Source: an uncultured Verrucomicrobiae bacterium
Lineage (GTDB): Bacteria; Verrucomicrobiota; Verrucomicrobiia; Limisphaerales; Palsa-1400
Assembly (NCBI GenBank): GCA_963707025.1
Contig: CAVPOM010000005.1
Coordinates: 128,001-192,000 of the forward strand
DNA length: 64,000 nucleotides
Direction of reading: 5' to 3'
Shown here: piece by piece, positions 10,623 through 25,566 of the stretch
Position numbering within the stretch: the stretch's first letter is position 1
Layout: the number at the start of each line of letters is the position of its first letter
Translations under genes and position numbers: made by a program
The notes under the pieces: model-generated
Databases searched by the model: none
What the model was told of the DNA's origin: nothing
Seen by the model: only the letters and a program-made list of their open reading frames with translations

Positions 10623-12289
10623 CAGCCTGTCGGACTTAGGCGGGAGAATAAATTGACGGAGTTTGAATTGACTGGCGGTTTGAGCAGTCAATGCAAGGCA
10701 TGCCTGCGCGATTCGTCACCATTGATTACGATACGCCCCTGCTTTTGCCTCCGAACCTGCGCGACTGGGTGCCGGTGGGTCACTTGGCCCACTTCATCCT
10801 GGACGTAGTCGAGGAGTTGGATTTGCGTCAGGTTCGGGTCAACGAGCGGGGCACTGGGAGTGAGCAGTATCCGCCGCCGATGCTGTTGGCGCTGTTGCTC
10901 TACTGCTATGCCACCGGGGTATTTAGCTCGCGGCGTATTGAGCAAGCCACTTTGGACAGCGTGCCGGTGCGGATGATCTGCGGGGATACGCATCCGGACC
11001 ACGACACGATTTGCACGTTTCGGCGGGAGAACAAGGCCTTGGTGCAGGAGAGCTTCGTGCGCGTGTTGGAACTGGCCCAAGCGTTGAAGTTTCTGCAGGT
11101 GGGCCAGATCACCGTGGCGGTGGATGGGACCAAGGTGCTGGCCAACGCCAGCAAGCACGCGGCGGTCAGTTATGAGCATGCGGGCAAGACGATCCAGCAG
11201 TTGGAATTAGAGGTCAAAGAACTGCTGGCCAAAGCGGAGCAGGCCGACAGCACGCCGCTGGAAGAGGGGTTGACGATTCCGCAAGAAGTGCAACGGCGGC
11301 AAGAGCGCAAGGCCAAGCTGGCGGCGGCGCGGGCCGAGATTGAAGCGCGGGTCAAAGCCCGAGCAGCGGCGGAGATGGCCGAATACCAGGCCAAATTGGC
11401 CGAAAGGGAGGCCCAAAAAGACCGGGGAGAGAAGCCGCGCGGCCCTGAACCCAAGGCCCCCAGCTCAGAGCCCAAGCCTTCCGAGCAGTATAACTTTACC
11501 GACCCGCAGAGCCGGATCATGAAGGCGGGCAACGGCCAGCATTTTGAACAGAGTTACAATGCGCAGGCGGCCGTGGAGGTGGATAGCCGGTTGATTGTGG
11601 GCCAGCGGGTCAGCCAAGCGCCCAACGATAAACAGGAGTTGGTTCCCACCCTGAAGACCATTGCCTCACCGGTGGAGTCGGTGGCCGCGGTATTGACCGA
11701 CAGCGGATTTTACAGCGAAGCGGCGGTCCAGGCCGTGGAACGAACAGGCGAAGCTCAGCCTACTGGCACGATTGTCTATGCGGCAGTCGAGAAAAAGGAG
11801 CACCATCGCACCGTGGGCGATCTGGAGCGAAAGCCGGAGTCCGACGCACCGGGGCCGCAGGCCAGCACCAGCGAGGTGATGAAACACCGGCTGCGCACGG
11901 CGCAGGGTCGAGCCAGATACAAATTGCGGCAGCAGACGGTGGAACCGGTGTTTGGGATCATCAAGAGCGTCTTGGGCTTTCGACAGTTCCTGTTGCGAGG
12001 TCTGCAGAAAGTGGAGTTGGAATGGCAGTTGGTCTGCCTGGCCTATAACCTCAAACGGCTACATCGGATGGGCGCAAAGCTTCCCGGCGGCGGGATAAAA
12101 GTCGAACGCAGACCCCACCGGCTCGGCCAAGCACTCCGCCGAGAAGCTCCAGGGAAATCTTCAGAGGGTGAAAAAGCCGGCGAAATTGAGACAAAAGAAA
12201 TTGTTGCTTCTTTTTGAACACAATCCCGCTGCCGCCCGTCTCATTTGGATTCCTCAACAGCCAAAGTCAAATTCCAGTCCGACAGGCTG
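10623..12289 (+). mobile_element. IS1182-family insertion sequence with 14-bp terminal inverted repeats and CTAG target duplication
   Basis: IR CAGCCTGTCGGACT (10623-10636) / AGTCCGACAGGCTG (12276-12289), flanked by CTAG at 10619-10622 and 12290-12293. Removing it restores a 37-bp spacer. Confidence 0.93.
10691..12217 (+). CDS. IS1182-family DDE transposase (C-terminal tail possibly extended by a frameshift)
   Basis: LLLPPNLRDWVP.GHLA, YPPPMLLALLLY, SSRRIE, PDHDTI..FR, VDGTK, TDPQSRIM, YNAQAAV, DSGFYS, VEPVFG.IK. Confidence 0.93.
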   Translation: MQGMPARFVTIDYDTPLLLPPNLRDWVPVGHLAHFILDVVEELDLRQVRVNERGTGSEQYPPPMLLALLLYCYATGVFSSRRIEQATLDSVPVRMICGDTHPDHDTICTFRRENKALVQESFVRVLELAQALKFLQVGQITVAVDGTKVLANASKHAAVSYEHAGKTIQQLELEVKELLAKAEQADSTPLEEGLTIPQEVQRRQERKAKLAAARAEIEARVKARAAAEMAEYQAKLAEREAQKDRGEKPRGPEPKAPSSEPKPSEQYNFTDPQSRIMKAGNGQHFEQSYNAQAAVEVDSRLIVGQRVSQAPNDKQELVPTLKTIASPVESVAAVLTDSGFYSEAAVQAVERTGEAQPTGTIVYAAVEKKEHHRTVGDLERKPESDAPGPQASTSEVMKHRLRTAQGRARYKLRQQTVEPVFGIIKSVLGFRQFLLRGLQKVELEWQLVCLAYNLKRLHRMGAKLPGGGIKVERRPHRLGQALRREAPGKSSEGEKAGEIETKEIVASF

Positions 12290-14011
12290 CTAGGGAGCCG
12301 CACAACATCACAGACGCTTCAACGGGGCCGCGCCCGCGCGGGCGCGGAATGGACCCGCCAGTGGCGCAAGGCCGGACTGGCGCGTTAGATGCTTCAACGG
12401 GGCCGCGCCCGCGCGGGCGCGGAATGATGCCGGCAGTCGAACGCCTTCCGCGCTCATCGACGCTTCAACGGGGCCGCGCCCGCGCGGGCGCGGAATGGAA
12501 TGCGAGCGAGCATGTGACGAGCATGGCAAGCTTCAACGGGGCCGCGCCCGCGCGGGCGCGGAATGGCGATCGGCGCCATCGCCCATCTCGCATTGGCATG
12601 GCTTCAACGGGGCCGCGCCCGCGCGGGCGCGGAATGTACGGTGCCAATATTTCAACGGACGGCCACGCGGCCATGGACAGTATGCTTCAACGGGGCCGCG
12701 CCCGCGCGGGCGCGGAATGCGGTCCGTCGCGGCCCTGCCCAATCATCGCCGAAGCTTCAACGGGGCCGCGCCCGCGCGGGCGCGGAATGCCGCGCAGCAT
12801 CCGCCAGCCGCGCCCGTGCCGGTAATGCTCCGCTTCAACGGGGCCGCGCCCGCGCGGGCGCGGAATGGACGTCGCACGCAGTTGACGCCGGCCGCCGGCG
12901 CGATGACGCGAATGCGCAGTGCTTCAACGGGGCCGCGCCCGCGCGGGCGCGGAATGCGTCTGACGCGTGGCTACTGGCGAGCAGGACGCGTGCAGGCTTC
13001 AACGGGGCCGCGCCCGCGCGGGCGCGGAATGCCGGTCGACGGCTGCGCGCCTAGACAGCTCGCCGCAGCTTCAACGGGGCCGCGCCCGCGCGGGCGCGGA
13101 ATGATGCTGCGCGCCAAGGCCGACGATCCGCAGCTCATGGTGCTTCAACGGGGCCGCGCCCGCGCGGGCGCGGAATGCGAGGCAGCCAGCATCGGTCGCA
13201 TCAGCCGCAGCCTGGCGCTTCAACGGGGCCGCGCCCGCGCGGGCGCGGAATGCGCGCCGTCGCATGCTCGACGCTGCATGCCGCATCGCTTCAACGGGGC
13301 CGCGCCCGCGCGGGCGCGGAATGCGACGCCATCGTCGCGGCGCATGCGTCACCTGCGCTTCAACGGGGCCGCGCCCGCGCGGGCGCGGAATGTGTCGAAG
13401 TGCGCCAGCGCGGCTTCAACGGGGCCGCGCTCGCGCGGGCGCGGAATGCTGCGATGGGCAGCCTGCACGCTTCAACGGGGCCGCGCCCGCGCGGGCGCGG
13501 AATGGCCGACCGTGTCGACTGGCCAGCCGTGGCGGACGCTTCAACGGGGCCGCGCCCGCGCGGGCGCGGAATGATGCCTCGCCACGCGAGCACGCCGCGC
13601 CACGTCAAGGCTTCAACGGGGCCGCGCCCGCGCGGGCGCGGAATGTACGTGGACGGCCGCTGGACATCAGCGCTCGATAGTGAGCTTCAACGGGGCCGCG
13701 CCCGCGCGGGCGCGGAATGCAGCGCTGCGGCATGCCTCGCCAGCCGGCGACCGTCTCGCCGGCTTCAACGGGGCCGCGCCCGCGCGGGCGCGGAATGCGA
13801 ATGGCTGGCCGCGGCCAGCGCAGTGGCCAAGCTGCTTCAACGGGGCCGCGCCCGCGCGGGCGCGGAATGCTGGCGCGAGGCCCAGCTGGCGCGCTGCGAT
13901 ACGCGCTTCAACGGGGCCGCGCCCGCGCGGGCGCGGAATGGCAATTGGCTGCTGGCCTTGCGCGCAGGCGGATGCGCTTCAACGGGGCCGCGCCCGCGCG
14001 GGCGCGGAATG

Positions 14012-14215
14012 TTCTCTCTCGTAACTCTTTCCAGCGCAAGCTCGCAACGACTGATTTGCGATTGCCTGCGTCCATTTCGTTTCCATTCTTTTCCTGCTGT
14101 GGATCTGTCTCACACTATTCGTTCAATATCAAGCGTTTACGTCATGCGAGCACCAGCGGGGTTTTCCGCGTCACCTCGCCGCTCGCAGGTTCGATTATCA
14201 AAGAACACCAAAGTC
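14012..14215 (-). promoter_or_regulatory. CRISPR leader with IHF-consensus site and short inverted repeat
   Basis: AT-richer non-coding stretch between the array and cas2. TATCAAGCGTTTA (14127-14139) fits WATCAANNNNTTR. TGCGAGC (14145-14151) / GCTCGCA (14181-14187) form an inverted repeat. Confidence 0.7.
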
Positions 14216-14506
14216 TCACACCACATAACACGGCGCGTCCAGTTTCACATAGGGCAGTCCCAACGCCGTAATTACCCGATCCCCTCGCCCCTCCGCTGGC
14301 CCCAGCCCAACAAAAATTACTTGATCCTCATCGTGGTTGATGATTTCGGTCAAAGCAGATTCCAGTTCAATCTTCTCCGACGGGTTCAGATCGCACTCGA
14401 ACACCGAAAATTGCAGGTGGTCGCCAAAATTGCTGCAAGTCTTGAATACCTTCCGCAACCGTTTGTCGTCTGCAATATCGTAACACACCAAATACGTAGT
14501 TCTCAT
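14216..14506 (-). CDS. cas2: CRISPR-associated endoribonuclease Cas2
   Basis: YLVCYDIADDKRLRKVFK...GDHLQFSVFEC. Confidence 0.95.
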   Translation of the reverse strand: MRTTYLVCYDIADDKRLRKVFKTCSNFGDHLQFSVFECDLNPSEKIELESALTEIINHDEDQVIFVGLGPAEGRGDRVITALGLPYVKLDAPCYVV

Positions 14507-14509
14507 GGG

Positions 14510-16642
14510 TCACCTGGTCAACAATGGAATGTATTCAGCGATTTCGCCGGTCAGGGTTTTTGCCAGCAGTCGCGCCTGCAATTCCAGCGCCCGACGATAG
14601 CTGACTTTGTAGTCGAACAACGGATGCGTGATCAACGAACTCATGCGCTGCTCGTACATCTGGAAAAAGCGCTTCCGCCCGGGTGCGGTCAGATTCACTG
14701 CTTGGCCGGCCCGCACAAAATCCTTTTCCGTGACGACGTGATTGTTGATGCAACTCAACACTGTGGACTCCGCCACCAACGGCCTCATTTCTTCCATCAA
14801 ATCCAACCCCAACGCCGGCCGCCCAAACCGGGGTTGGTGGTAAAACCCAATGTACGGGTCAAAACCGACTGCCAAGGCGGCGAGCGTGCAATCCTTGCTC
14901 AACATGCTATACGCCAGGGAAAGCATCGCGTTGACGGGGTCAGTCGGCGGCCGGCGGTTGCGATTGGTGAAGTTGAAGTTGAACGCAAGTTGTTTGGGAT
15001 CTTTGCCAGGCATTTCGAGGCCGGGCAGGTCGTCTTCCACCTTGATCATGCCGCTGAACTGCTGGAAATACTGGCTCGCAGCGGCCCCCTCGATGCCGAG
15101 GAGTTCCTCGACTGAAGCCGCCGCCAGCGCATCCTCGGATGCCCGCTTCAGTTTCAGGATGATTGGTTCCGGAGGCTCCAGGTGATTGCGCATAAGGAGG
15201 GTGCGGTGGTTGCGGATTTTTCCATGGACAAATCGTCTGGCGAGCGAAAGGCACATCGCCTCATCTCGCGCCAGCCGAAATTGCTCCATCCGCAAGAACA
15301 CATTCTTCAACGAGTGCCCGCGCGTGATGCCGTAAAACCAGCCGCCCATCGAAAAGTAAGTGATCGGGATTTCCTGGTCGCAAAGCGATTGAATGGCCTG
15401 AGTCGAGATCTGGATGTTTCCGAACAGCGCAACATGTGAAAGATCGCGCATCCGCACTTCCTCGATGACCCTGTCCTTTTCTTTGACCGTCAACACCTCG
15501 TCTTTGCATCCCACACGATAACCCTGGGTGTTCAGATAAAGCGGGCGGGTGTCGTCGCGGGCGGCGATCAATCTCCTGGGCGGCTTGCCCGCCACGGCAG
15601 ATTTATCGTCTGGTGCGGACGGATTCTCCAGCAAAGCCGCCTCAAGATCCGGGGGAATTTGCGCCAGCATCCGCGTTTCGTCCGGCAGGCAAACCGGCGC
15701 AAGCGAACACCGCACGCATTTTGGAGAATTGACCAATGGCTTCGGGATTGGCCCGGTGACAATCCGTTTGGCTTCCCCAATGCTTTGCAAAATCCAGCTT
15801 TCCAGTTCGGGCGTGATCGGCAGGCGAACGCGCTGCTTCGCGGCGCGATAATAGATAATGCCATCGTTGCAGGTGTAGCCGTTGTCACGCAGGATGAGCG
15901 CCTGCAATCCAAGCTGCATTTTGTCCGTGTCCCACAGTTCGTTTGCCTCTTCCCCCTCTTTGGGCGCACCCGCCTTGTAATCAACCGGACAGACCTCCAA
16001 CGCGGTGAGCAAATCCCCTTTTTCCGCCTTGGTTTCAACGAGGTCCATCTTTGCCACGACGCCCAACCGCTCTGATCCCATTTGGACGGAACGCGAATGG
16101 ATTGTCTCCGGCTCGGCGTTCTTGGTTTCAGCCTCCTTGCTGGTGGATTCAGTCGCCGCTGATGTCTCCTTTTCCGCACTTGGCTTGTCGGCGTCCGCCT
16201 TCCGCTTGGCTTTTGGCAGGGCGCCGCTGCCCGAATCAACGCGCTGGTGGATCGCGCCTCCCCGCAACGTGTCCGCGCTTTCGACGAAAACCCCCTCGAC
16301 GAATTCGTAATAGAAGAGCCGCTGGCAATACACGAATTCGTTCAGCATCCGCGCCGGAATTTGCTGCGGCTCAGACTCTTGGCGGGAAGGCGATGGCGGA
16401 GACTGAGAGATTGCGGGCGGCGGAGTTTCAACCTGAGCTTGCGCAAGACTGGCCAATTGAGCTTCAACAGCCTCCACCCGCAAAGTTATCTTCATCGGCT
16501 GCGGTTCGTCGGTCTGCCGGCGCAACCCCGGTTGGTCACTGGTTCTTGCGCCGCCTGCTCCGGGAGTAATGCCTCTTGGCACCACGGTTATTTCCGGTTC
16601 TGTCGAACGTGATCCTGCGAGTATTGGTTTTTTTTCGTCCAT
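14510..16642 (-). CDS. cas1: Cas4/Cas1 fusion protein (type I-G style)
   Basis: Cas4 part: NEFVYCQRLFYY, PVDYKAG, PKCVRCSLAPVCLPDE. Cas1 part: LLGIEGAAA, RNRRPPTDPVNAMLS, GFYHQPRFGRPALGLDLMEE. Confidence 0.95.
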   Translation of the reverse strand: MDEKKPILAGSRSTEPEITVVPRGITPGAGGARTSDQPGLRRQTDEPQPMKITLRVEAVEAQLASLAQAQVETPPPAISQSPPSPSRQESEPQQIPARMLNEFVYCQRLFYYEFVEGVFVESADTLRGGAIHQRVDSGSGALPKAKRKADADKPSAEKETSAATESTSKEAETKNAEPETIHSRSVQMGSERLGVVAKMDLVETKAEKGDLLTALEVCPVDYKAGAPKEGEEANELWDTDKMQLGLQALILRDNGYTCNDGIIYYRAAKQRVRLPITPELESWILQSIGEAKRIVTGPIPKPLVNSPKCVRCSLAPVCLPDETRMLAQIPPDLEAALLENPSAPDDKSAVAGKPPRRLIAARDDTRPLYLNTQGYRVGCKDEVLTVKEKDRVIEEVRMRDLSHVALFGNIQISTQAIQSLCDQEIPITYFSMGGWFYGITRGHSLKNVFLRMEQFRLARDEAMCLSLARRFVHGKIRNHRTLLMRNHLEPPEPIILKLKRASEDALAAASVEELLGIEGAAASQYFQQFSGMIKVEDDLPGLEMPGKDPKQLAFNFNFTNRNRRPPTDPVNAMLSLAYSMLSKDCTLAALAVGFDPYIGFYHQPRFGRPALGLDLMEEMRPLVAESTVLSCINNHVVTEKDFVRAGQAVNLTAPGRKRFFQMYEQRMSSLITHPLFDYKVSYRRALELQARLLAKTLTGEIAEYIPLLTR

Positions 16643-16645
16643 ATT

Positions 16646-18061
16646 TCACCTTCCAGCCGCCACACAGGAGTCGTGCCATGCCCTGATGCCCTTGATCACG
16701 CGCCGATGTTTAACAGCCTTGATTGTTCGATTAAGCCGCGCCGCAATTTCCTGGTCCGGCCCCGTTCCCAGCAGGGAATCTTCATCGGGCCGCCAGGCCG
16801 GTGCCGCCCTCCGCACACTCAGAATGCCCCTTTTGCCCCGGGCGCGACGGACGGTGGCCAAAGAATGTCCCGTGCGGCGAACGATTTCCTCGTCCGGCAA
16901 TTCTCCCAGTAATGACAATTCGTTGGGTTTCCAGATTTCGTAGTGGGGATTGCAGAACGGAATACCCAGGTTGAGCCGCTTATCACGCACATTTGCCAGC
17001 GACCGGTTGACCAGCTTGCCCACTTCCCGGTCTGGACGGGTGCCAAGCAACGCAATCTCCTCCTTCGTCCAATGCCGGTTATTGGGATTGTTGTTCGGCA
17101 ACCCGAGCAACCACCGCCGCCGGCGGACCCTCGACAGGGAATAGCCCAGCCTGCGCGCCACTTCTTCGTCTGTGAACTTGCCCAGCAACGCGTCCTCTTC
17201 CTCCGTCCAAGTGATATAACGTGCCCCCGGTTTGGCACGCACCCCGTTCACCGGTTGCCTTCCACGACCATCAGGCGCGACGAGCTTGACGATTTTGAAC
17301 ACAGCATCCGGCTTGGTCCGGCCCAATGCACAGCGGCGCGCTTCCACCGCTTGAAACGTGCGCCCAAACGCGAGCGCCAGTTCCTTGTCCGGCTTCGAGC
17401 CGAGTAATGCTTCCTCCTCCGGCGTCCACGGACGAGACCTGTATTTGGGCGGGATGCCCAGCTTTTTGCGCCGCCAACCCACATTCGTCAGGCTACGGCC
17501 GAGAAGCATGGCGACCTCACGATCGTTGCGCATTCCGAGAATCCAGTCGTCTTCCGGACGCCAATCCTTTTTCACCCGGATGCGCTTCTTCCAACGGCGA
17601 TGCCGCACCGTACTGACCGGACGGCCAAACTTCCGGGCCAGCACCTTGTCCGGCTGCGTCCCCAGCAACCGATCCTCCTCCTGTGTCCAGTCCGGCTGCT
17701 TTTGCCTCGCCTTGCCGCCGGCCAACTGGAGTCGCATTTTGCAAACCCGTTCGTGGCTCCAGCCGAGGATGGCGCGCAGTTCCCGGTTTGATTTCGTGGC
17801 GAACAAATGCGAGTAATGATCCTGCGGCTCCCGTTCCATGCGAAAGGGCTGCGGCGCATGTCCAACCGCTCGTTTTCCGAGCAATTGGCGCCGGTCCCGC
17901 ACGCCAAGCAACGTGCGATGCAGCTTTTCCGTCACTTCGCGGTCGGTCAATTTGCCGAGCAACGCATCCTCCTCCTTTGTCCACGGAAACTGCCGCGTCG
18001 AACGAAGCCCCTCTTCCTGGCCGATTTTCCGCTGCGGACGGGGTGGAGGCGGGGCTTTCAT
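16646..18061 (-). CDS. Tandem Myb/SANT-like HTH repeat protein (9 units of about 44 aa)
   Basis: Repeated WTxEEDxLLGxxxDxEVAxxLGRSxxxVxxRRxxLG (8 clear units, 1 degenerate). ATGA overlap with the upstream gene. Ends 3 bp before cas4/1. Confidence 0.8.
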   Translation of the reverse strand: MKAPPPPRPQRKIGQEEGLRSTRQFPWTKEEDALLGKLTDREVTEKLHRTLLGVRDRRQLLGKRAVGHAPQPFRMEREPQDHYSHLFATKSNRELRAILGWSHERVCKMRLQLAGGKARQKQPDWTQEEDRLLGTQPDKVLARKFGRPVSTVRHRRWKKRIRVKKDWRPEDDWILGMRNDREVAMLLGRSLTNVGWRRKKLGIPPKYRSRPWTPEEEALLGSKPDKELALAFGRTFQAVEARRCALGRTKPDAVFKIVKLVAPDGRGRQPVNGVRAKPGARYITWTEEEDALLGKFTDEEVARRLGYSLSRVRRRRWLLGLPNNNPNNRHWTKEEIALLGTRPDREVGKLVNRSLANVRDKRLNLGIPFCNPHYEIWKPNELSLLGELPDEEIVRRTGHSLATVRRARGKRGILSVRRAAPAWRPDEDSLLGTGPDQEIAARLNRTIKAVKHRRVIKGIRAWHDSCVAAGR

Positions 18062-18534
18062 ACAGGTAGACTCGTTGATGTTAGCTCTGGCGCTGATCCG
18101 CCTTGCGCGCGCTTGAACATTCCATAATGACGGCGAAGACGGTCAATATAGGCGCGATCCTCAAGGAGAATTTGGCGAAACAACTCCAGCAGCGCCGGAG
18201 ACAGTTTGGACTGCGTATTCAACGGGTCCAGGTCGGCGCTGGCCAACTCCCGCGCGCTCTCGCGGTCGCCGTGCAGCCATTTAGCGTAAAAATCCTCGCT
18301 CTCCCAGCCGTAATTGATCGTGGCCAGAACTTTATTGGGCCGGTCAGCGCGGCAGACCTGAAAGAGGACGCGCCGGCAGTCGCAAGTCGGCTCATTGCAA
18401 TACAATTCCAGAAACCCATATTCGCCGGCGGGCAACCCGGCGTGGGGTTCCAGGAGCCTGATCGTGCGCGTCTCGCGCGCCGCCAACTCTGGGAAACGCG
18501 AGAAAAACGGGGCCATGTGTGCAAGAGGCTTCAT
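18058..18534 (-). CDS. Hypothetical protein with Cys cluster (YCNEPTCDCRRV)
   Basis: Clean 158-aa ORF coupled to both neighbours, with a CxxxxCxC motif. Confidence 0.7.
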   Translation of the reverse strand: MKPLAHMAPFFSRFPELAARETRTIRLLEPHAGLPAGEYGFLELYCNEPTCDCRRVLFQVCRADRPNKVLATINYGWESEDFYAKWLHGDRESARELASADLDPLNTQSKLSPALLELFRQILLEDRAYIDRLRRHYGMFKRAQGGSAPELTSTSLPV

Positions 18535-18540
18535 TGTAAC

Positions 18541-18787
18541 TCACTCGCAAAACAGGCGTCGAAACAACTTCTTCGGACAGTTGCCGGCCTTCCTGAGACA
18601 GCACCACCGATTTGGCCTTCTTTTTCGGATCAGAAATCAGGCCCTTCTTGTGGAGGCGGTCCAGAGCATCCCAATCGTGACTCTTCCACGCCCGGGTAAG
18701 CGCCAATTCGTCCTTTCCCTCGGTAAAGCTGGTCAAATAGAGCAACGCCAGCACCGCGTCATCAATTTTGTCGAGGTTGGGTTTCAT
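18541..18787 (-). CDS. Small DUF6429-like winged-helix protein; frameshift near the 3' end
   Basis: KIDDAVLALLYL...RAWKSHDWDALDRLHKKGLISDPKKKAKSVVLS.EG. The shifted frame ends LFRRLFCE*. Confidence 0.7.
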
Positions 18788-18797
18788 AGTTGTGAAA

Positions 18798-19545
18798 TCA
18801 TTGGACGGTTTCCGTGGCAACTGGAACAAACTGGCCAAGACCGAAGTGGCAGGAATGGCCGAGAACGAGGGGGCCGCAGATCGGTTTTTCGGTTTGGAAC
18901 TCAACGGTGAAAGCCAGTCGCCTGGACGGCGAAAGCCTGTTGATTGCGCAGTGTTTAGCGATCCGCACTCGAATATCACCCCATCGAACGATCCGCACTT
19001 CCCGGGGCTTGCAATTTGGAACCTGTTCCAACTCCTGGCACAGTTGGTTTTCTGGTAGGAGATGACGCTTCCCATGTGTTCCCCAAAATTGACGTAGCGG
19101 TACATACGGCGTTGCGCTAATCCAACGAGTCGCAAGTTGCCGGAAACACTGGTCATCTGTGTCGGCAAGTTCCAGGAAAATCCTAGTGGAAGGGCCATTC
19201 CACTGTAGTGCCTTGACAATTCTGAGTGCCTCTATCTCCTCTTTGGAAAACCGCAGATGTGGGTCTCACGAGAACAATTCCGACAATCGCTCCGTCCGCA
19301 GCGGGTTGGGGCAAGTAGAAAGCGTGATGATGGCCCCTATCTGGTTGGCCGTCGGGTTGATGGCCGGTCAACAGAAACGAGTCCTTACTCCCGGTTGTCG
19401 CATGAAAAGCTGATAAGGCCGCTGCGCGAAATGCTTCAGCCACCGCGACGGTAGAACGCACCGGTGGGCGACCCTGAGCGAAGGTGAATCGTACTATTTG
19501 ACCCGAGGGTTGTGTGAATTCTGTGGCCGGTTTGAGAAGGCTCAT
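18798..19545 (-). CDS. csb2: Stand-alone C-terminal (Cas6-like) half of type I-G Csb2, about 248 aa; one frameshift near 19265
   Basis: Frame 1: VAEAFRAAAL...LTGH..DG....HHHAFYLP. Frame 2: RWISATPYV...ICGPLVLGHSCHFGLGQFVP. GGAGGAG RBS upstream and ATG overlapping the cas3 stop. Confidence 0.8.
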
Positions 19546-21854
19546 CGGTTTCTCCTCCATCCTGTCGTTGTGTCGTAGTAATCGGACGAGATTGCCAGCG
19601 GCATGTGAACACAATCAAACCGTTCGTCCGGCTCAATGCTATATGCGTGTTCTCGCGGAATTTCAACCATCCGTTGGGCGATCTCGTTGCGCAGCATCCG
19701 AAGTCGCTTTCTCCGAGTCTGCAAGTCGGCCAGTTCATGGGCCGCTGTCAGTTTCTCCCACACTCGTTGATCCGACTCGTCTGTCTCTACAAAGTGGGCA
19801 ATCCGGTTCGGGGCCTCCTCGATAAGTCGGACGGCTTTCGTGTCCCGATCTCGGTCTTCGCCTTCTCCGCGCAATGCCGCAAACTGCATCATGCGCACAG
19901 CCTCCAGAATCTTCTGCGTCGTGTCCTGTCCCAAACGGGACTCTAATCTCTCAAAATACTGGTTCACGAGACTGCGCAGTTCTGGCTCGCGAAACGAGGT
20001 TCTCCTTTGGAATATCTCGCGTACAAGGCCCGAGTGAACCTGTCCATAGATGACGACTCCGCTGTAGCCTTCCAAATCGAAAACATACACTACCCCACGT
20101 TGACCTGTGCCATGCCGGTTGCAACGCCCGGCAGCTTGGATAATCGCATCCAGGGGAGCTAAAGCCCGGAAAACTACGTCAAACGACAGGTCCACACCGG
20201 CCTCGACCACTTGGGTTGCCACGAGAATATGGGGTTGGCGGCAGGAGTTCACCTGTTTCAATATCTCATTGCGATCCTTGGGGCGCAGATTGGTTGAAAG
20301 GTGAAAGAGCCTGTAACCGCGAAGATCAGGCGCCCTCTTTAACGAAGCGTGTAGTTCAAGGGCTTCCCGTACGGTGTTTAGAATGACCAAACATGAGCAC
20401 TGACTGTTCTTGGACAACTCGCTTACGACGCGGCACGTCAGGTTTTCCATGGACAGCGTAGTAGTGATATCCACGTACATGTCATAGCGGTCAAAGACAC
20501 TCACAAATTCCGCTGGATCAACACCGATTTCCTCCCTCTCCGACTGCGAGAAAAGTGCTGGCTGGGTAGCGGTAACCAACAGAATGTCAGTTCCAAATCG
20601 GTGGCTGAGCGACTGGAGTGCTAATCGCAATACCGGCCATAACTCGGCTGGAAAAGCTTGAACCTCATCCAGAATAAGGATTGCCCCTGCCAACTTGCTA
20701 AACCGCCGGGCATTAGCTGACGTGGCGTGGAACATTGCATTAGCGACCTGCACGAAGGTAGTGCAAACGACATCGGCACGCCAACCCTCCACCCAGCTTC
20801 GAGCCAACGATTCCTCGCCGCTTTGTTCCATCTGACCTAGCTCGGCAAGATGATGGTGAACTGCTATGGCGCTCTCATCAACGGGACCATCTCCCCAAAG
20901 CTTGCGGATGACGGCTACGTTTTGGTCAATAATGCTCGTGAACGGGAGCGCATAGATGACCGGGCAAATACACAGACCCGCCTTGATGCGAGCTTGCCGG
21001 CGAGCCAATGCCCAACCCAGTGCGGCAAGTGTTTTTCCTGCCCCAGTGGGAACGGTCAGAGTCCACAAGTGCCCGGAATTCGCCGGATGATCATTAGCGT
21101 GTGCGACCGCCGAAGCATAAACTCGGTTGCGCGCATCTGCAATCGTAGGTTGCGCCGCCGCGCCAAAACTCCGAGCGCTGCGGAATGCTGCGACGTGTTC
21201 CAACGAGAGTTGCGGCGGAGCGTCGAAGGTTCCAACGGCGTATCGGGCGGCCGAATCACGGTCTGCTTCAATGAGACGGCCAAAGTCGCGCAGCGCCGTT
21301 TGAAAGCGCACCATCGTGTCGCCATCGGAACAGGGTTGACGCAGGGCAATGTTCGCTTTCACCCTAAGTTCAATCAGACCACGCCTGTCCAGCACAGGCC
21401 GGACTACCGGCCCGCCAAGCCGTTCCGCAAACCAACCTGCGATTCCCGTAGCGTCCATCGTTCCGAATTGCTGCTGCAACCGATTCAGAGTGTGCTGATC
21501 GGGGTAGGTGGCCCCATCCAGAAGGTCGTCCAAACTCCCGTGATGGCGACGCACAAAGAGGAAAGCCAGTGCTGCATGAACTGCCATCACGCTTTCCCCT
21601 GAGGAAACAATAGGCTGCAGGAACTGCATCAGCCAAAAAGCTCCAACCTCCGCGTGCCAACGCAGCTCCGGCGACACATTCTCTCCATGCAGATAAGCTT
21701 GGAAAAAGCTGGTACCCTTACCAAGATCGTGGAACAACGCCGCCCAAGCCAGCCAGTAGCCATCACCAACATCGAGCCGGCTCCTCACATCCAGCAGATG
21801 GTCAATCAGCAATCGGCCAGGGTGTGATTCACAATGCGGAAATGCAGGTGCCAT
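19542..21854 (-). CDS. cas3: CRISPR-associated helicase/HD nuclease Cas3
   Basis: HLLDV/FHDLGK HD domain, PTGAGKT, DEVQ, TAT, VATQVVEAGVD, QAAGRCNRHG. Confidence 0.95.
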   Translation of the reverse strand: MAPAFPHCESHPGRLLIDHLLDVRSRLDVGDGYWLAWAALFHDLGKGTSFFQAYLHGENVSPELRWHAEVGAFWLMQFLQPIVSSGESVMAVHAALAFLFVRRHHGSLDDLLDGATYPDQHTLNRLQQQFGTMDATGIAGWFAERLGGPVVRPVLDRRGLIELRVKANIALRQPCSDGDTMVRFQTALRDFGRLIEADRDSAARYAVGTFDAPPQLSLEHVAAFRSARSFGAAAQPTIADARNRVYASAVAHANDHPANSGHLWTLTVPTGAGKTLAALGWALARRQARIKAGLCICPVIYALPFTSIIDQNVAVIRKLWGDGPVDESAIAVHHHLAELGQMEQSGEESLARSWVEGWRADVVCTTFVQVANAMFHATSANARRFSKLAGAILILDEVQAFPAELWPVLRLALQSLSHRFGTDILLVTATQPALFSQSEREEIGVDPAEFVSVFDRYDMYVDITTTLSMENLTCRVVSELSKNSQCSCLVILNTVREALELHASLKRAPDLRGYRLFHLSTNLRPKDRNEILKQVNSCRQPHILVATQVVEAGVDLSFDVVFRALAPLDAIIQAAGRCNRHGTGQRGVVYVFDLEGYSGVVIYGQVHSGLVREIFQRRTSFREPELRSLVNQYFERLESRLGQDTTQKILEAVRMMQFAALRGEGEDRDRDTKAVRLIEEAPNRIAHFVETDESDQRVWEKLTAAHELADLQTRRKRLRMLRNEIAQRMVEIPREHAYSIEPDERFDCVHMPLAISSDYYDTTTGWRRNR

Positions 21855-22546
21855 CAGCTAATCTCCAATAAGCTCTCAAGGAGGCCGCGATAGAACGGCC
21901 CGTGGTGTCCATCACATAAGCCTCGTACCGAGTCACTTCGCGGTTGGGTTGCATCACAGCCGGCAGACGAACCCGCTGATAAACCCCGTCCGCGTTCCAG
22001 TGGATTTCGTCTTGTACGTCATCCGAGCGTACAAGCGAAACGAATTCCCGATGATTCTTGTCGCCGGAGACCTCCTCCGCCTCCACGATTTGCACGCCGT
22101 CTCCGAACCAAGCGATCATCCAGGCGAGTCCCAGGCAGGGGGTGTAGCACGATTCCCCATGTTTTAGCGATTCCGCCAATTGACGAGCGAGGGTCGGATG
22201 ACTGAACATCACCCGGTAGCGTGGCTGTCGCAAGACCTCATACCGCACCGTCGTGCGTGGATTCACCGCTTTGAGGCGAAAGCTCGGATTCTGTTTCGTA
22301 TCCACCAGATTGATGGAGACGTATCCTGTGCGGAGTGGGCTCAGAATCTGTAGAACCGAACACCGCTTCGCTATCTTGGAAGTGTGCGAGTGACTCGTTC
22401 TTCGGCAGGCCAAGCACCGCACCGACCAATCCGCAGAGCGCCGTTCGCGGCGGAACGGGATACGTGAGAGCAGTCGTGATCGCGTATTGCCGCCTAAAGT
22501 GCGCCAAGTCGGACGCCACATCGAAGATGACAAACTCTCGACGCAT
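21829..22546 (-). CDS. cas5: Type I-B Cas5 (Cas5h-like); frameshift near 22355
   Basis: FDVASDLAHFRR.....ALTYPVPPRTALCGLVGAVLG, then EVLRQPRYRV...YTPCLGLA. Confidence 0.88.
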
Positions 22547-22547
22547 C

Positions 22548-23617
22548 TTAATCGAACTCCAGCTTATCGGCTTCCGAACCTAGAAATGTCCATTTGCCGT
22601 CCTGCGCCTGCGGCGGTTGTGACAGCTTTAGAAGGTTGTTCCATGCGAAGCGGATTCGTGCGATTTTGTCTTTTCGCTCCGACAAAACCGTATTTAGATT
22701 TGTCAGGTCCAGCGTGACTTGGGTGACGTCACGCAGCTCTTCATCGCGGATTTCACCATCCCCACTCGCGCTCGGTTTGCCCACGTCCACACCGCCATTC
22801 TTGCCACGCTTGAGGTCTAAGAATCGGTCAGAAACGTCCAATATAGTGCTTTGAATTCGCATCGTTATATTCCACCGATCGGAGCAGAAGAGGCCGCTGC
22901 CCCATCTTGGACCGGGTGATCAGGCTCTTCGTGCCATACCAAATCGCCTCATAGAGCTTTTCCTCATCGCGGCTAGTGAGCATCGTGGCTTCGGCCGCTT
23001 TCTGGTTCACGATTCCATAAATGGCGATCAACCCATACGGCAGTACCGTACTCCTCACGAAACGTCTTCTGTTGCGCGCCTTGCCCGGAGGCGAACGCCC
23101 CCGTTCCTTTGATGAACCTCGGCTCAACGCGATGCAGCGATGTTCCCATGGCGAACTGGGCCGCGCCGGTTAGCGTGACGCTTGAGTCCTTCTCGCCCTC
23201 CTTGAGCTTCGAGACCGGTATCGTGCCGCCGAAAAGACGGACATCAATGCACTGCGCGATGACGCCCGCTTTAATGAGATCACGCTTTTGGAGGACGCTC
23301 TTCGCGTTCGCTTTCGCCTCTTTAGAGAGTTGGCTGAAAAAATCCTCTGACCGGTCCTTGCCGTCCTGTATCGTCCCGTCCTCCTTTTCGATCTGGCGGC
23401 AAAAGATTTCCTCTCCGCCATAAGCCCGCAAGTAGTCGCGGATCGTCCGTTTCAAACGGACATCGGACACCTTGGCTCTTCCGGATTCCAAATCCATTCT
23501 CGGCCGGTTCTCGTCATTCGGATCGCCATTCGGATTTGCGTCGGCGATGTCGTACACAAATAGGATCTCAGTGCGTGTCGTGATGTGTCCTGGTTCCTCT
23601 GCTGTTGTTGCATTCAT
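22548..23617 (-). CDS. cas7: Type I-B Cas7 (Csh2-like); two frameshifts at about 23050 and 22870
   Basis: EILFVYDIADANPNGDP..ENRPRMD......VSDVRLKRTIRDYL, DVRLFG, TGAAQFAMG.SLH, LYEAIWYGT...TRSKMGQRP. Confidence 0.9.
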
Positions 23618-23634: not shown

Positions 23635-25566
23635 TCACTGGGGTTGGCTGGTTGGGTTTTCGTCAGCATCCTTCGCGAAACGTGGCCGCAAAGCATGGCC
23701 CAACGTAAAGAAATAGGAAATCTCATCTGGCGAGAGCGGCCACTGGTCTGGTGTCGCTGCAAGGGCGGCCGCGGCACACTCCAATAAGCCGCTTACTTTT
23801 CGCTCCTGCTCAATTCCGTATGCCTTTGCCTTGTCCATAGCCGCGACAAACAGACCCTGCACATCCGAGCGATCTATGCGAAACCCCTTCAGTTTTCCCG
23901 AAAAAGGAGTCGCGCCTCGCATGTGCGCCTGTATTTGTTCAATCCGGCTGCAACATGCACCCACTAGGAATGCCGCTTGCGGCGCGGGATCAGTTCGCAG
24001 CTTTCCCGACGCTTGGTCGAGGACCTTGCGCACTCGGTTGGCTTGGTCAGAATCACCATAATCAACTTGCATATTTTGTTCTCTCCTCTCTGTATCTGGG
24101 TTGGTCAATGTTTCGAAAAACAAAATTGTGCGAAACAAATCTGCGAGACGAAACTGCCACGCCTTGCCTGCCCGATAGTCGTCCTGAACCCATCGCATAC
24201 CGACTTGAAGCAGCCGACGGGTCGAAAACTCCCGCAGTTCCAAGGCTGCCCGTGTGGCGGCCAAGAAATCGTTATCAAAATTGCTGCCTCCATGGGCGGC
24301 TGGGAATACGTTGCGGAGAGAACCGAAGGTGAATTGGCCGTTCGCGAATGAACCCGGGCTTGATGCATTGAGCCATGGATGGCGATCCACGCGGCTTTTG
24401 GCTTCAAATAGCTCTCGGAACCGAGTCGGCAAAAGCCCGGAGACATATAACGCAGGACGGAACGACTGTGGATCCGGTTGATAAAACAGCAAGTCCACTT
24501 GCAGTAGATTCTTCTCTTGCGACACAACGTAAAACAACTCGTCCTCGGCCGCGGTCAACCGTGCCTGTGCAGTCTTGTTGATCCGCGCATTTATCAGACG
24601 GTCCAAGAACTGGTACGCCATCGTTGGCGTAGGCAGTACAGGTGATGGCAAGAGCAGATACTTGAAACCGTAGTAATCAAAATTCAACTCTTTCTTCACG
24701 CGCTCCCCTGCGAAATCCACTTTGTCGCAGCATTCCCTACAGGCTGGGAAGTTGCGCCAAGCCCCGGATGGATCAAACCCGCCTGACACCGAGCCTGGCT
24801 TGTCCAACGTGTAGAGCTTGAATTGCTGGATTTGCAGTAGGCCCGAAACTTCCGTGTTCGTCTTCCCGCAGATACTGCATTGCCCAATTCCCTGCACTGC
24901 GCCCTTGATGCCCTTCTTCGTTGTCGCGGACTCCTTCCCGGACCGCACCAAGGACTGCTGAAACGTGTCGAAGTCGCCGACGTGTCTTAACGGCTCCTTT
25001 TCTTCCTGCCACGCAACCGAAATAATTGCGGGTTGGGAAACAATCGATTTCTTTTTCGCCACAGGGGGGTTGTACCGTTGGATCTGATCGCGTAGCGCCA
25101 CACGCTTTGCCGTGCTTGATTCGTCATTTGCATTTGCCGAATCCAACCACTCTCGAATCTTTCCAAGCGTCTTGGTCTCTGGTCCAGGGAGATTTACGCC
25201 TCTATCAACCGCATCCCGAATGCTTTCCGACAAACGGACCAGTTTCTTTCTGATTTCCTCTAATAGTGCTGCTTGATACTTCGCGTCGGTATCTCCTTTT
25301 GCGGCCCGCAATCCGGATGTTGGCGTCGCATCCCAACCGTTCGGCGGCCCTTCCCGGTAGAGGTAGGCTCGGCGTTTAACTGGATCGCATTCCTCGACCT
25401 GAATCCGCTGGAAGCCTTTGCCGGAGAAAATCAACAGGAGCACAGTTTTTGTCCGGAATTTCGCCACCGGGTCACGCATATATTGCGCAACCGGGTCGCC
25501 AGCCCCTTTTCCGAGTCCTTCCCGATCCCGGTAAAACGCCCCGAGTTCGGCAAACTGATGGATCAT
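23635..25566 (-). CDS. cas8b: Type I-B large subunit Cas8b (Csh1/TM1802-like)
   Basis: CSICG and FKLYTLDKPG..SGGF...AWRNFPACREC Zn-binding signature, YLLLP, helical C-terminal domain (AFLVG, ISYFFTLG). First gene of the cas operon. Confidence 0.85.
   Translation of the reverse strand: MIHQFAELGAFYRDREGLGKGAGDPVAQYMRDPVAKFRTKTVLLLIFSGKGFQRIQVEECDPVKRRAYLYREGPPNGWDATPTSGLRAAKGDTDAKYQAALLEEIRKKLVRLSESIRDAVDRGVNLPGPETKTLGKIREWLDSANANDESSTAKRVALRDQIQRYNPPVAKKKSIVSQPAIISVAWQEEKEPLRHVGDFDTFQQSLVRSGKESATTKKGIKGAVQGIGQCSICGKTNTEVSGLLQIQQFKLYTLDKPGSVSGGFDPSGAWRNFPACRECCDKVDFAGERVKKELNFDYYGFKYLLLPSPVLPTPTMAYQFLDRLINARINKTAQARLTAAEDELFYVVSQEKNLLQVDLLFYQPDPQSFRPALYVSGLLPTRFRELFEAKSRVDRHPWLNASSPGSFANGQFTFGSLRNVFPAAHGGSNFDNDFLAATRAALELREFSTRRLLQVGMRWVQDDYRAGKAWQFRLADLFRTILFFETLTNPDTERREQNMQVDYGDSDQANRVRKVLDQASGKLRTDPAPQAAFLVGACCSRIEQIQAHMRGATPFSGKLKGFRIDRSDVQGLFVAAMDKAKAYGIEQERKVSGLLECAAAALAATPDQWPLSPDEISYFFTLGHALRPRFAKDADENPTSQPQ

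Follow-up and report, generated by a model that had tools for sequence, protein, structure and literature searches.

Csb2 (Cas5/6g, TIGR02165), the closest described relative of the protein under study, has been characterized biochemically in two systems. For Thioalkalivibrio sulfidiphilus (Tsu), the passages on repeat processing in PMC9638904 report that a Csb2 fragment starting at R262 cleaves the repeat alone, that H503 is required and H331 dispensable for cleavage, and that the cut falls 4 nt 3' of the stem and leaves an 8-nt handle. According to the same passages, the R262 fragment remains on the hairpin after cutting, and no RNA tested was bound by the N-terminal domain. In the second system, that of B. 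animalis, the passages on the nuclease place the activity in the C-terminal domain (H520 and D530) and locate the cut toward the 5' side, in that region of the repeat (10.1101/2022.08.19.504415). In type I-B, Cas5b holds the 5' handle in a structure described in part of PMC11096372, and systems with Cas4-Cas1 fusions are already known (PMC6547450, section on these fusions).

The locus investigated here lies in a window of 64,000 nt (the whole stretch of DNA that was analyzed) and encodes a short protein that shares with Csb2 of Tsu (PMC9638904, passages on the nuclease domain) the C-terminal sequence, the predicted Cas6 fold, the conserved histidines, and the glycine loop. Also in common with the I-G Csb2 system are the 36-nt hairpin repeat, in which 4 nt separate the stem from the 8-nt handle, and the Cas4g-Cas1g partner. 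Unlike Csb2, the short protein has no Cas5-like N-terminal half and has its own start, in which it resembles the engineered Tsu fragment starting at R262; and whereas csb2 of type I-G follows cas7g, short csb2 follows an I-B cas3 in an operon without Cas7g, Cas8g, and Cas3g. With type I-B (Cas8b TM1802/Csh1, Hmari-like), the locus shares Cas8b, Cas7b/Csh2, Cas5b, a Cas3 with an N-terminal HD domain, and a likely internal Cas11. In contrast to I-B systems with Cas6 or Cas6b, the nuclease of the hybrid appears to be Csb2-derived instead of belonging to TIGR01877, PF01881, or PF17262, and the adaptation genes and repeats are those of type I-G. An I-B effector together with a fused Cas4-Cas1 is common to this locus and the systems of PMC6547450; however, the window fusion scores above the cut-off of the I-G model NF049935, and the section of that paper on the fusions mentions no Csb2-derived Cas6. 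The short protein is not a Csb2 member, yet would work like the Csb2 nuclease domain; the locus combines an I-B effector with an I-G memory. Our main reading, to which we assign a probability of about 85%, is that the short protein processes crRNA as the nuclease of a conserved I-B/I-G hybrid and that its cut lies 4 nt beyond the stem of the repeat, not at the stem base.

The gene order in the window is cas8b-cas7b-cas5b-cas3, short csb2, three unrelated genes, cas4g-cas1g, cas2, and the array:

23635..25566, minus strand: cas8b (TM1802/Csh1 family), 643 aa; PF09484 281 bits, PADLOC best match Cas8b
23635-24072, minus strand: likely internal Cas11 in cas8b, 145 aa; AGGAG, then ATG at Cas8b Met499
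22548..23617, minus strand: cas7b/Csh2; spurious bases at 22831 and 23046, PADLOC best match Cas7b
21829..22546, minus strand: cas5b; spurious base at 22354, PADLOC best match Cas5b
19542..21854, minus strand: cas3 of I-B type, 770 aa; N-terminal HD, then helicase, best PADLOC match Cas3b (E 1.5e-153)
19552..19558, minus strand: RBS-like GGAGGAG within the 3' end of cas3, 6 nt before the short csb2 ATG
19542-19545, minus strand: ATGA, start/stop overlap of the short csb2 ATG and the cas3 stop
18798..19545, minus strand: short csb2 (Csb2 C-terminal, Cas6-like), 248 aa; base 19264 of the window assembly is spurious
18058-18787, minus strand: DUF6429 gene, then a 158-aa ORF of no family, directly after short csb2; indel at 18566-18569 in reads
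16646-18061, minus strand: 471-aa protein with repeated HTH-like units W[T/K]xEEDALLG (weak Pfam HTH matches), between effector and adaptation genes
14510..16642, minus strand: cas4g-cas1g fusion, type I-G; NF049935 700 bits, cut-off 560
14216..14506, minus strand: cas2
14012..14215, minus strand: leader region, resembling the leader of the type I-G array on contig C4 of the same genome
10206..14011, minus strand: CRISPR array of I-G type, 30 repeats of 36 nt, 29 of them identical
10691-12217, plus strand: DDE transposase (PF13751, DUF772), splitting the array, with six repeats on its trailer side

The I-B effector set (Cas8b, Cas7b, Cas5b, and Cas3 with N-terminal HD) is present in the window; its scores on TIGR02556 and TIGR02591 lie under the cut-offs, as does the Cas4-Cas1 fusion on I-MYXAN. 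An internal start of the Cas11 type was present in four of seven Cas8b checked, the other three being unmatched by the search pattern. The window repeat comprises an 8-bp stem and, 4 nt further on, an 8-nt handle; owing to the G+C content, its fold does not differ significantly from that of shuffled sequences (z −1.1). The leader-side spacers (window positions 12316-14011, and likewise in the C4 array) are G+C rich and of irregular length (20-53 nt) with many GCAT and GCGC words, a pattern that may be an artefact of consensus building from a mixed population. No spacer of the array matched its own genome over the full length. The spacers of the trailer part gave one phage match (81%, E 0.1), which was treated as chance; no credible protospacer or PAM was found in these searches. 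The window genome (88% complete) contained no match to the Cas6/Cas6b models TIGR01877, PF01881, PF10040, or PF17262.

On the minus strand from 19545 to 18798, short csb2 runs from its start to HHHAFYLP in one frame, and WISATPYV and GPLVLGHSCHFGLGQFVP lie in another, the two crossing near 19265. The initial annotation had joined both frames into a protein of about 248 aa carrying all three elements. Read through with an X at the break, the gene gives exactly 248 aa, its second frame ending at 18798, and an intact 248-aa protein (P0002) is present on seven contigs. The gene also has its own RBS and an ATG overlapping the cas3 stop, as had been stated. Correction of the indel from reads, which had been recommended, removed one base: position 19264 is absent from the contigs of all three DNA runs (X1, X2, and X4), one of which may itself be the source sample of the window. 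The same runs also lack one base at 22354 (cas5) and one each at 22831 and 23046 (cas7). Metagenome contig L088, which matches the window at 99.7% identity along 5828 nt, shows these indel differences as well, and all of its frames are open. Short csb2 is a real gene and its frameshift is an assembly error, not biology, because base 19264 is missing in 3/3 DNA runs and intact copies exist. A real frameshift or pseudogene with no intact homologues, which had been named as a threat to the proposal, is ruled out by the read contigs, the open frames of L088, and the purifying selection described below; a programmed frameshift is unnecessary since other assemblies have an open frame. Contigs of RNA run X15 cover parts of short csb2 and of other cas genes and, for want of a silent control, were not counted as expression.

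The short protein matches the Csb2 family TIGR02165 at positions 250-492 of 492 only (48 bits, cut-off 45), and the PADLOC model Cas56g with the C-terminal half of that model (E 6e-35). TIGR02165 was the only NCBIfam hit, Pfam gave no family at E 0.01, and no standard Cas6 sequence model was matched in either collection. An AlphaFold2 model built from a 43-row alignment (pLDDT 91.8) found its best structural match in 8fcj_B, the Cas6 of an I-B CAST (Z 12.6, rmsd 3.5, 190 aligned); Csf5 reached Z 12.2, and the top 10 Foldseek rows were all of the Cas6 family. The tandem ferredoxin/RAMP fold and the terminal glycine loop are present in this predicted structure. Sequence searches of solved structures returned chance matches alone for the single protein and none for the alignment. 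The partial TIGR02165 match and the model support the proposal of the initial annotation that the protein is the Cas6-like C-terminal half of Csb2 as a separate protein, and the structure comparison that it had asked for gave the RAMP/Cas6 fold it had anticipated.

The short-clade rows retain the glycine loop and keep His74 in 18/18, His230 in 18/18, and His233 in 17/18 cases (Tyr in the remaining one), counts that are biased because the source loci were picked by the glycine-loop pattern. His233 is also His in all 84 full-length Csb2 matching this pattern, from representatives chosen without it, and His230 is His in 16 of these 84. Because His233 is invariant in full-length Csb2 while His230 varies, we infer that His233 is the catalytic residue of the short protein. 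By position and conservation, not by alignment to either protein, it would correspond to H503 of Tsu and H520 of B. animalis. If this mapping holds, the counterpart of B. animalis D530 is A243, a variable and hence not conserved position. A basic motif, RRFWGTHGKxH, is specific to the short-Csb2 clade.

This clade comprises about 46 proteins near 247 aa. In a protein search, 46 of 60 matches were 43-100% identical, and 43 of these 46 measured 212-265 aa, mostly 229-265 aa. A length-free search gave top full-length matches of 246-254 aa (>230 bits), followed by two-domain Csb2 at about 120 bits, and no long form of the clade above 150 bits appeared among its best 150 matches. The short rows grouped together in a FastTree phylogeny of 140 rows, built without truncated or identical Csb2 rows (18/18, support 100), and in an IQ-TREE phylogeny of a 45-row subset, from which six long-branch full-length rows were omitted on purpose (11/11, support 99). 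Two pairs gave dN/dS values of 0.26 and 0.27 for short csb2; the clade is under purifying selection. Hosts named in the sequence records include Acidobacteriota, Planctomycetota, and Binatota, and the clade is rare in the phylum of the window genome: 400 other genomes yielded 15 weak matches, all <70 bits and none of this clade. Short Csb2 was absent from the IMG/VR contigs and PLSDB plasmids searched, and 40 relatives showed no long DNA match to the locus. A first genome scan with a single protein as query found nothing, and an alignment query gave matches. The locus searches covered the best 80 of 188 and the best 80 of 373 loci. Between L088:4709-5452 and L089:4081-4824, which stem from close strains, dS is 0.22 for short csb2 versus 0.006-0.04 for cas3, cas5b, and cas7b, which suggests an allele swap of the nuclease gene.

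Upstream DNA is available for 19 of the 23 clade loci listed, which include near-copies (L088-89, L090-92, and L100-102). In 18 of these 19, cas3 lies directly upstream; 11 reach cas5b and cas7b, nine reach cas8b, and none has cas7g upstream. In all four linked arrays, the repeats are of I-G type, and their fold consists of a stem of 8 bp followed by 4 nt and a handle of 8 nt. The claim that a short nuclease serves an I-B module with an I-G hairpin repeat is supported by the position after cas3 and by these folds. Over 10 loci, pairwise identity of short csb2 tracks that of cas5b (rho 0.81), cas3 (0.76), and cas7b (0.54), values reached in 0, 0, and 22 of 2000 permutations, respectively. The Cas1 proteins of six hybrid loci are scattered among 54 I-G Cas1 (five changes). 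In two more distant Cas8b loci, ordinary Cas6 or Cas6b is encoded, with Cas6b directly after cas3 in G491.

True I-G debris flanks the I-B block in L008, L091, and L097, with an N-terminal Csb2 piece in L097, and L020 carries an interrupted orphan short csb2 with no cas neighbours. Both would fit a decaying remnant of I-G csb2, stranded at an I-B insertion and with no present function. The single clade with its uniform length and start, dN/dS of about 0.26, co-divergence with the I-B genes, and distance from the full-length Csb2 of the window genome all speak against such decay, which is largely refuted and to which we give next to no weight. The intact copies, together with the selection and co-divergence data, instead agree with the initial annotation that short csb2 is a functional gene rather than debris.

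A second CRISPR locus is found in the window genome:

G000:C4:591102-604244 (L241:5102-18223), minus strand: complete type I-G system, comprising a 566-aa full-length Csb2 and a 36-repeat array

Of its 36 repeats, 32 differ from the window repeat in the last base alone, and the four trailer repeats are identical to it. Cas2 is 98% and Cas4-Cas1 85% identical between the loci, the leaders are alike, the RecD2-like upstream flanks share 91% nucleotide identity, and the effectors differ. The two loci resemble a single cassette fitted with unlike effector blocks. Elsewhere on the same contig (G000:C4:47853-49850), a distant Cas1-like gene lies near a 10-copy array of a different repeat. The full-length Csb2 of the complete I-G locus, whose repeat is almost that of the window, could process the window array in trans, and the short protein may be redundant in this genome.

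The presence of this locus, and of Csb2 matches starting at the N-terminus in three of five other genomes tested (full-length in G042 and G044), lends some plausibility to a purely structural role, in which the short protein would cap the crRNA hairpin while full-length Csb2 or another nuclease cuts in trans; the basic clade motif could serve such binding or docking. The MAGs G041 and G043, of unstated completeness, argue otherwise, as neither showed Cas7g, full-length Csb2, or a match to any of four Cas6 models; G041 contained Csb2 fragments and G043 a second short Csb2-like frame beside an array. The conserved histidines and glycine loop likewise favor a nuclease, and we consider a cap without cutting activity very improbable. 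Among 400 genomes of the phylum of G041, no second member of this Cas8b clade was found. In G043 (L010:14714-20727), cas2 is followed by a WYL-like gene, genes resembling a type III Cmr module, and a 140-repeat I-G-type array with the short Csb2-like frame.

As the nuclease of the hybrid, the short protein would bind the 8-bp repeat hairpin and cut 4 nt past the stem via His233. The cut would leave an 8-nt 5' handle (GUUGAAGC) that goes to Cas5b, Cas7b would coat the spacer, the short protein would cap the 3' hairpin of the crRNA, and Cas8b and Cas3 would locate and destroy DNA. Site-specific cleavage is here projected from the data on the Csb2 C-terminal domain. The cut at the 3' base of the stem that had been expected at first is probably wrong, because the Tsu Csb2 site and the window repeat geometry (stem, 4 nt, and 8 nt) agree. 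By occupying the slot of Cas6 or Cas6b in ordinary I-B operons, the short protein would make the I-B block compatible with I-G arrays; most likely, it lets the I-B effector use type I-G spacer arrays.

A long branch (about 1.0) leads to the short clade, which has no supported sister among full-length Csb2 and lies far from the Csb2 of the window genome. This placement would fit a surviving unfused Cas6 lineage whose sister was the Cas6 component that joined Cas5 in Csb2. The trees are unrooted, however, and the 140-row tree carries a warning of long branches meeting. Furthermore, other short Csb2 forms nest inside full-length clades, with at least seven forced label changes in the 140-row tree and four in the 45-row tree, so that loss of the N-terminal half appears to be recurrent. 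An unfused relic is therefore unlikely in our judgment, and truncation of Csb2 is the more likely origin on present phylogenies. The initial annotation had reasoned that the Cas5-like half is dispensable because the I-B module supplies its own Cas5. This explanation is not supported by the data: ordinary I-G loci contain short Csb2 halves too, and loss of the N-terminal half appears to need no Cas5b, because such halves originated repeatedly within I-G clades.

In 12 I-G loci (L025, L027, L028, L033, L039, L043, L062, L125, L130, L142, L150, and L155), full-length csb2 is followed by a second, short gene for the Csb2 C-terminal part, and several of these loci adjoin arrays whose repeats form a distinct family. 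In five of them (L025, L028, L039, L043, and L142), the full-length Csb2 lacks the histidines of HxHxxYLP and GHSxH, the short copy retains them, and it is as if the short Csb2 supplied the nuclease.

A literature search returned no description of this hybrid; most subscription papers lay outside it, and mentions in figures or tables are possible. The main text and text supplements of the 2025 classification (PMC12669027) do not contain 'csb2', its figures and one scanned file lying outside the search. In current annotation, the recurrent I-B/I-G hybrid is misread: databases label the proteins plain Csb2 or 'type I-U Cas5/Cas6', and Pfam is silent.

Module swapping in CRISPR-Cas systems is already familiar, which limits the surprise of the hybrid. 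As a tentative proposal, somewhat more likely to fail than to hold, a portable cassette of cas8b-cas7b-cas5b-cas3-short csb2 might repeatedly enter resident I-G loci, replacing the effector and inheriting adaptation genes and spacer memory, with the short nuclease as adapter. The scattered Cas1 of the six hybrid loci, the I-G debris at three loci, and the modules shared by the C4 and window loci were counted in its favor. Where both effectors coexist, two hairpin-capping nucleases might then route guide RNAs, one memory serving both; this routing and any benefit against anti-CRISPR proteins are speculation. The short protein is a natural counterpart of the engineered Csb2 truncation and offers a direct test of the purpose of the Cas5-like half. 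With both effectors on nearly one repeat in a single genome, crRNA sharing is testable, and a processing nuclease specific to a single kind of repeat would allow effector modules to be swapped under a fixed array.
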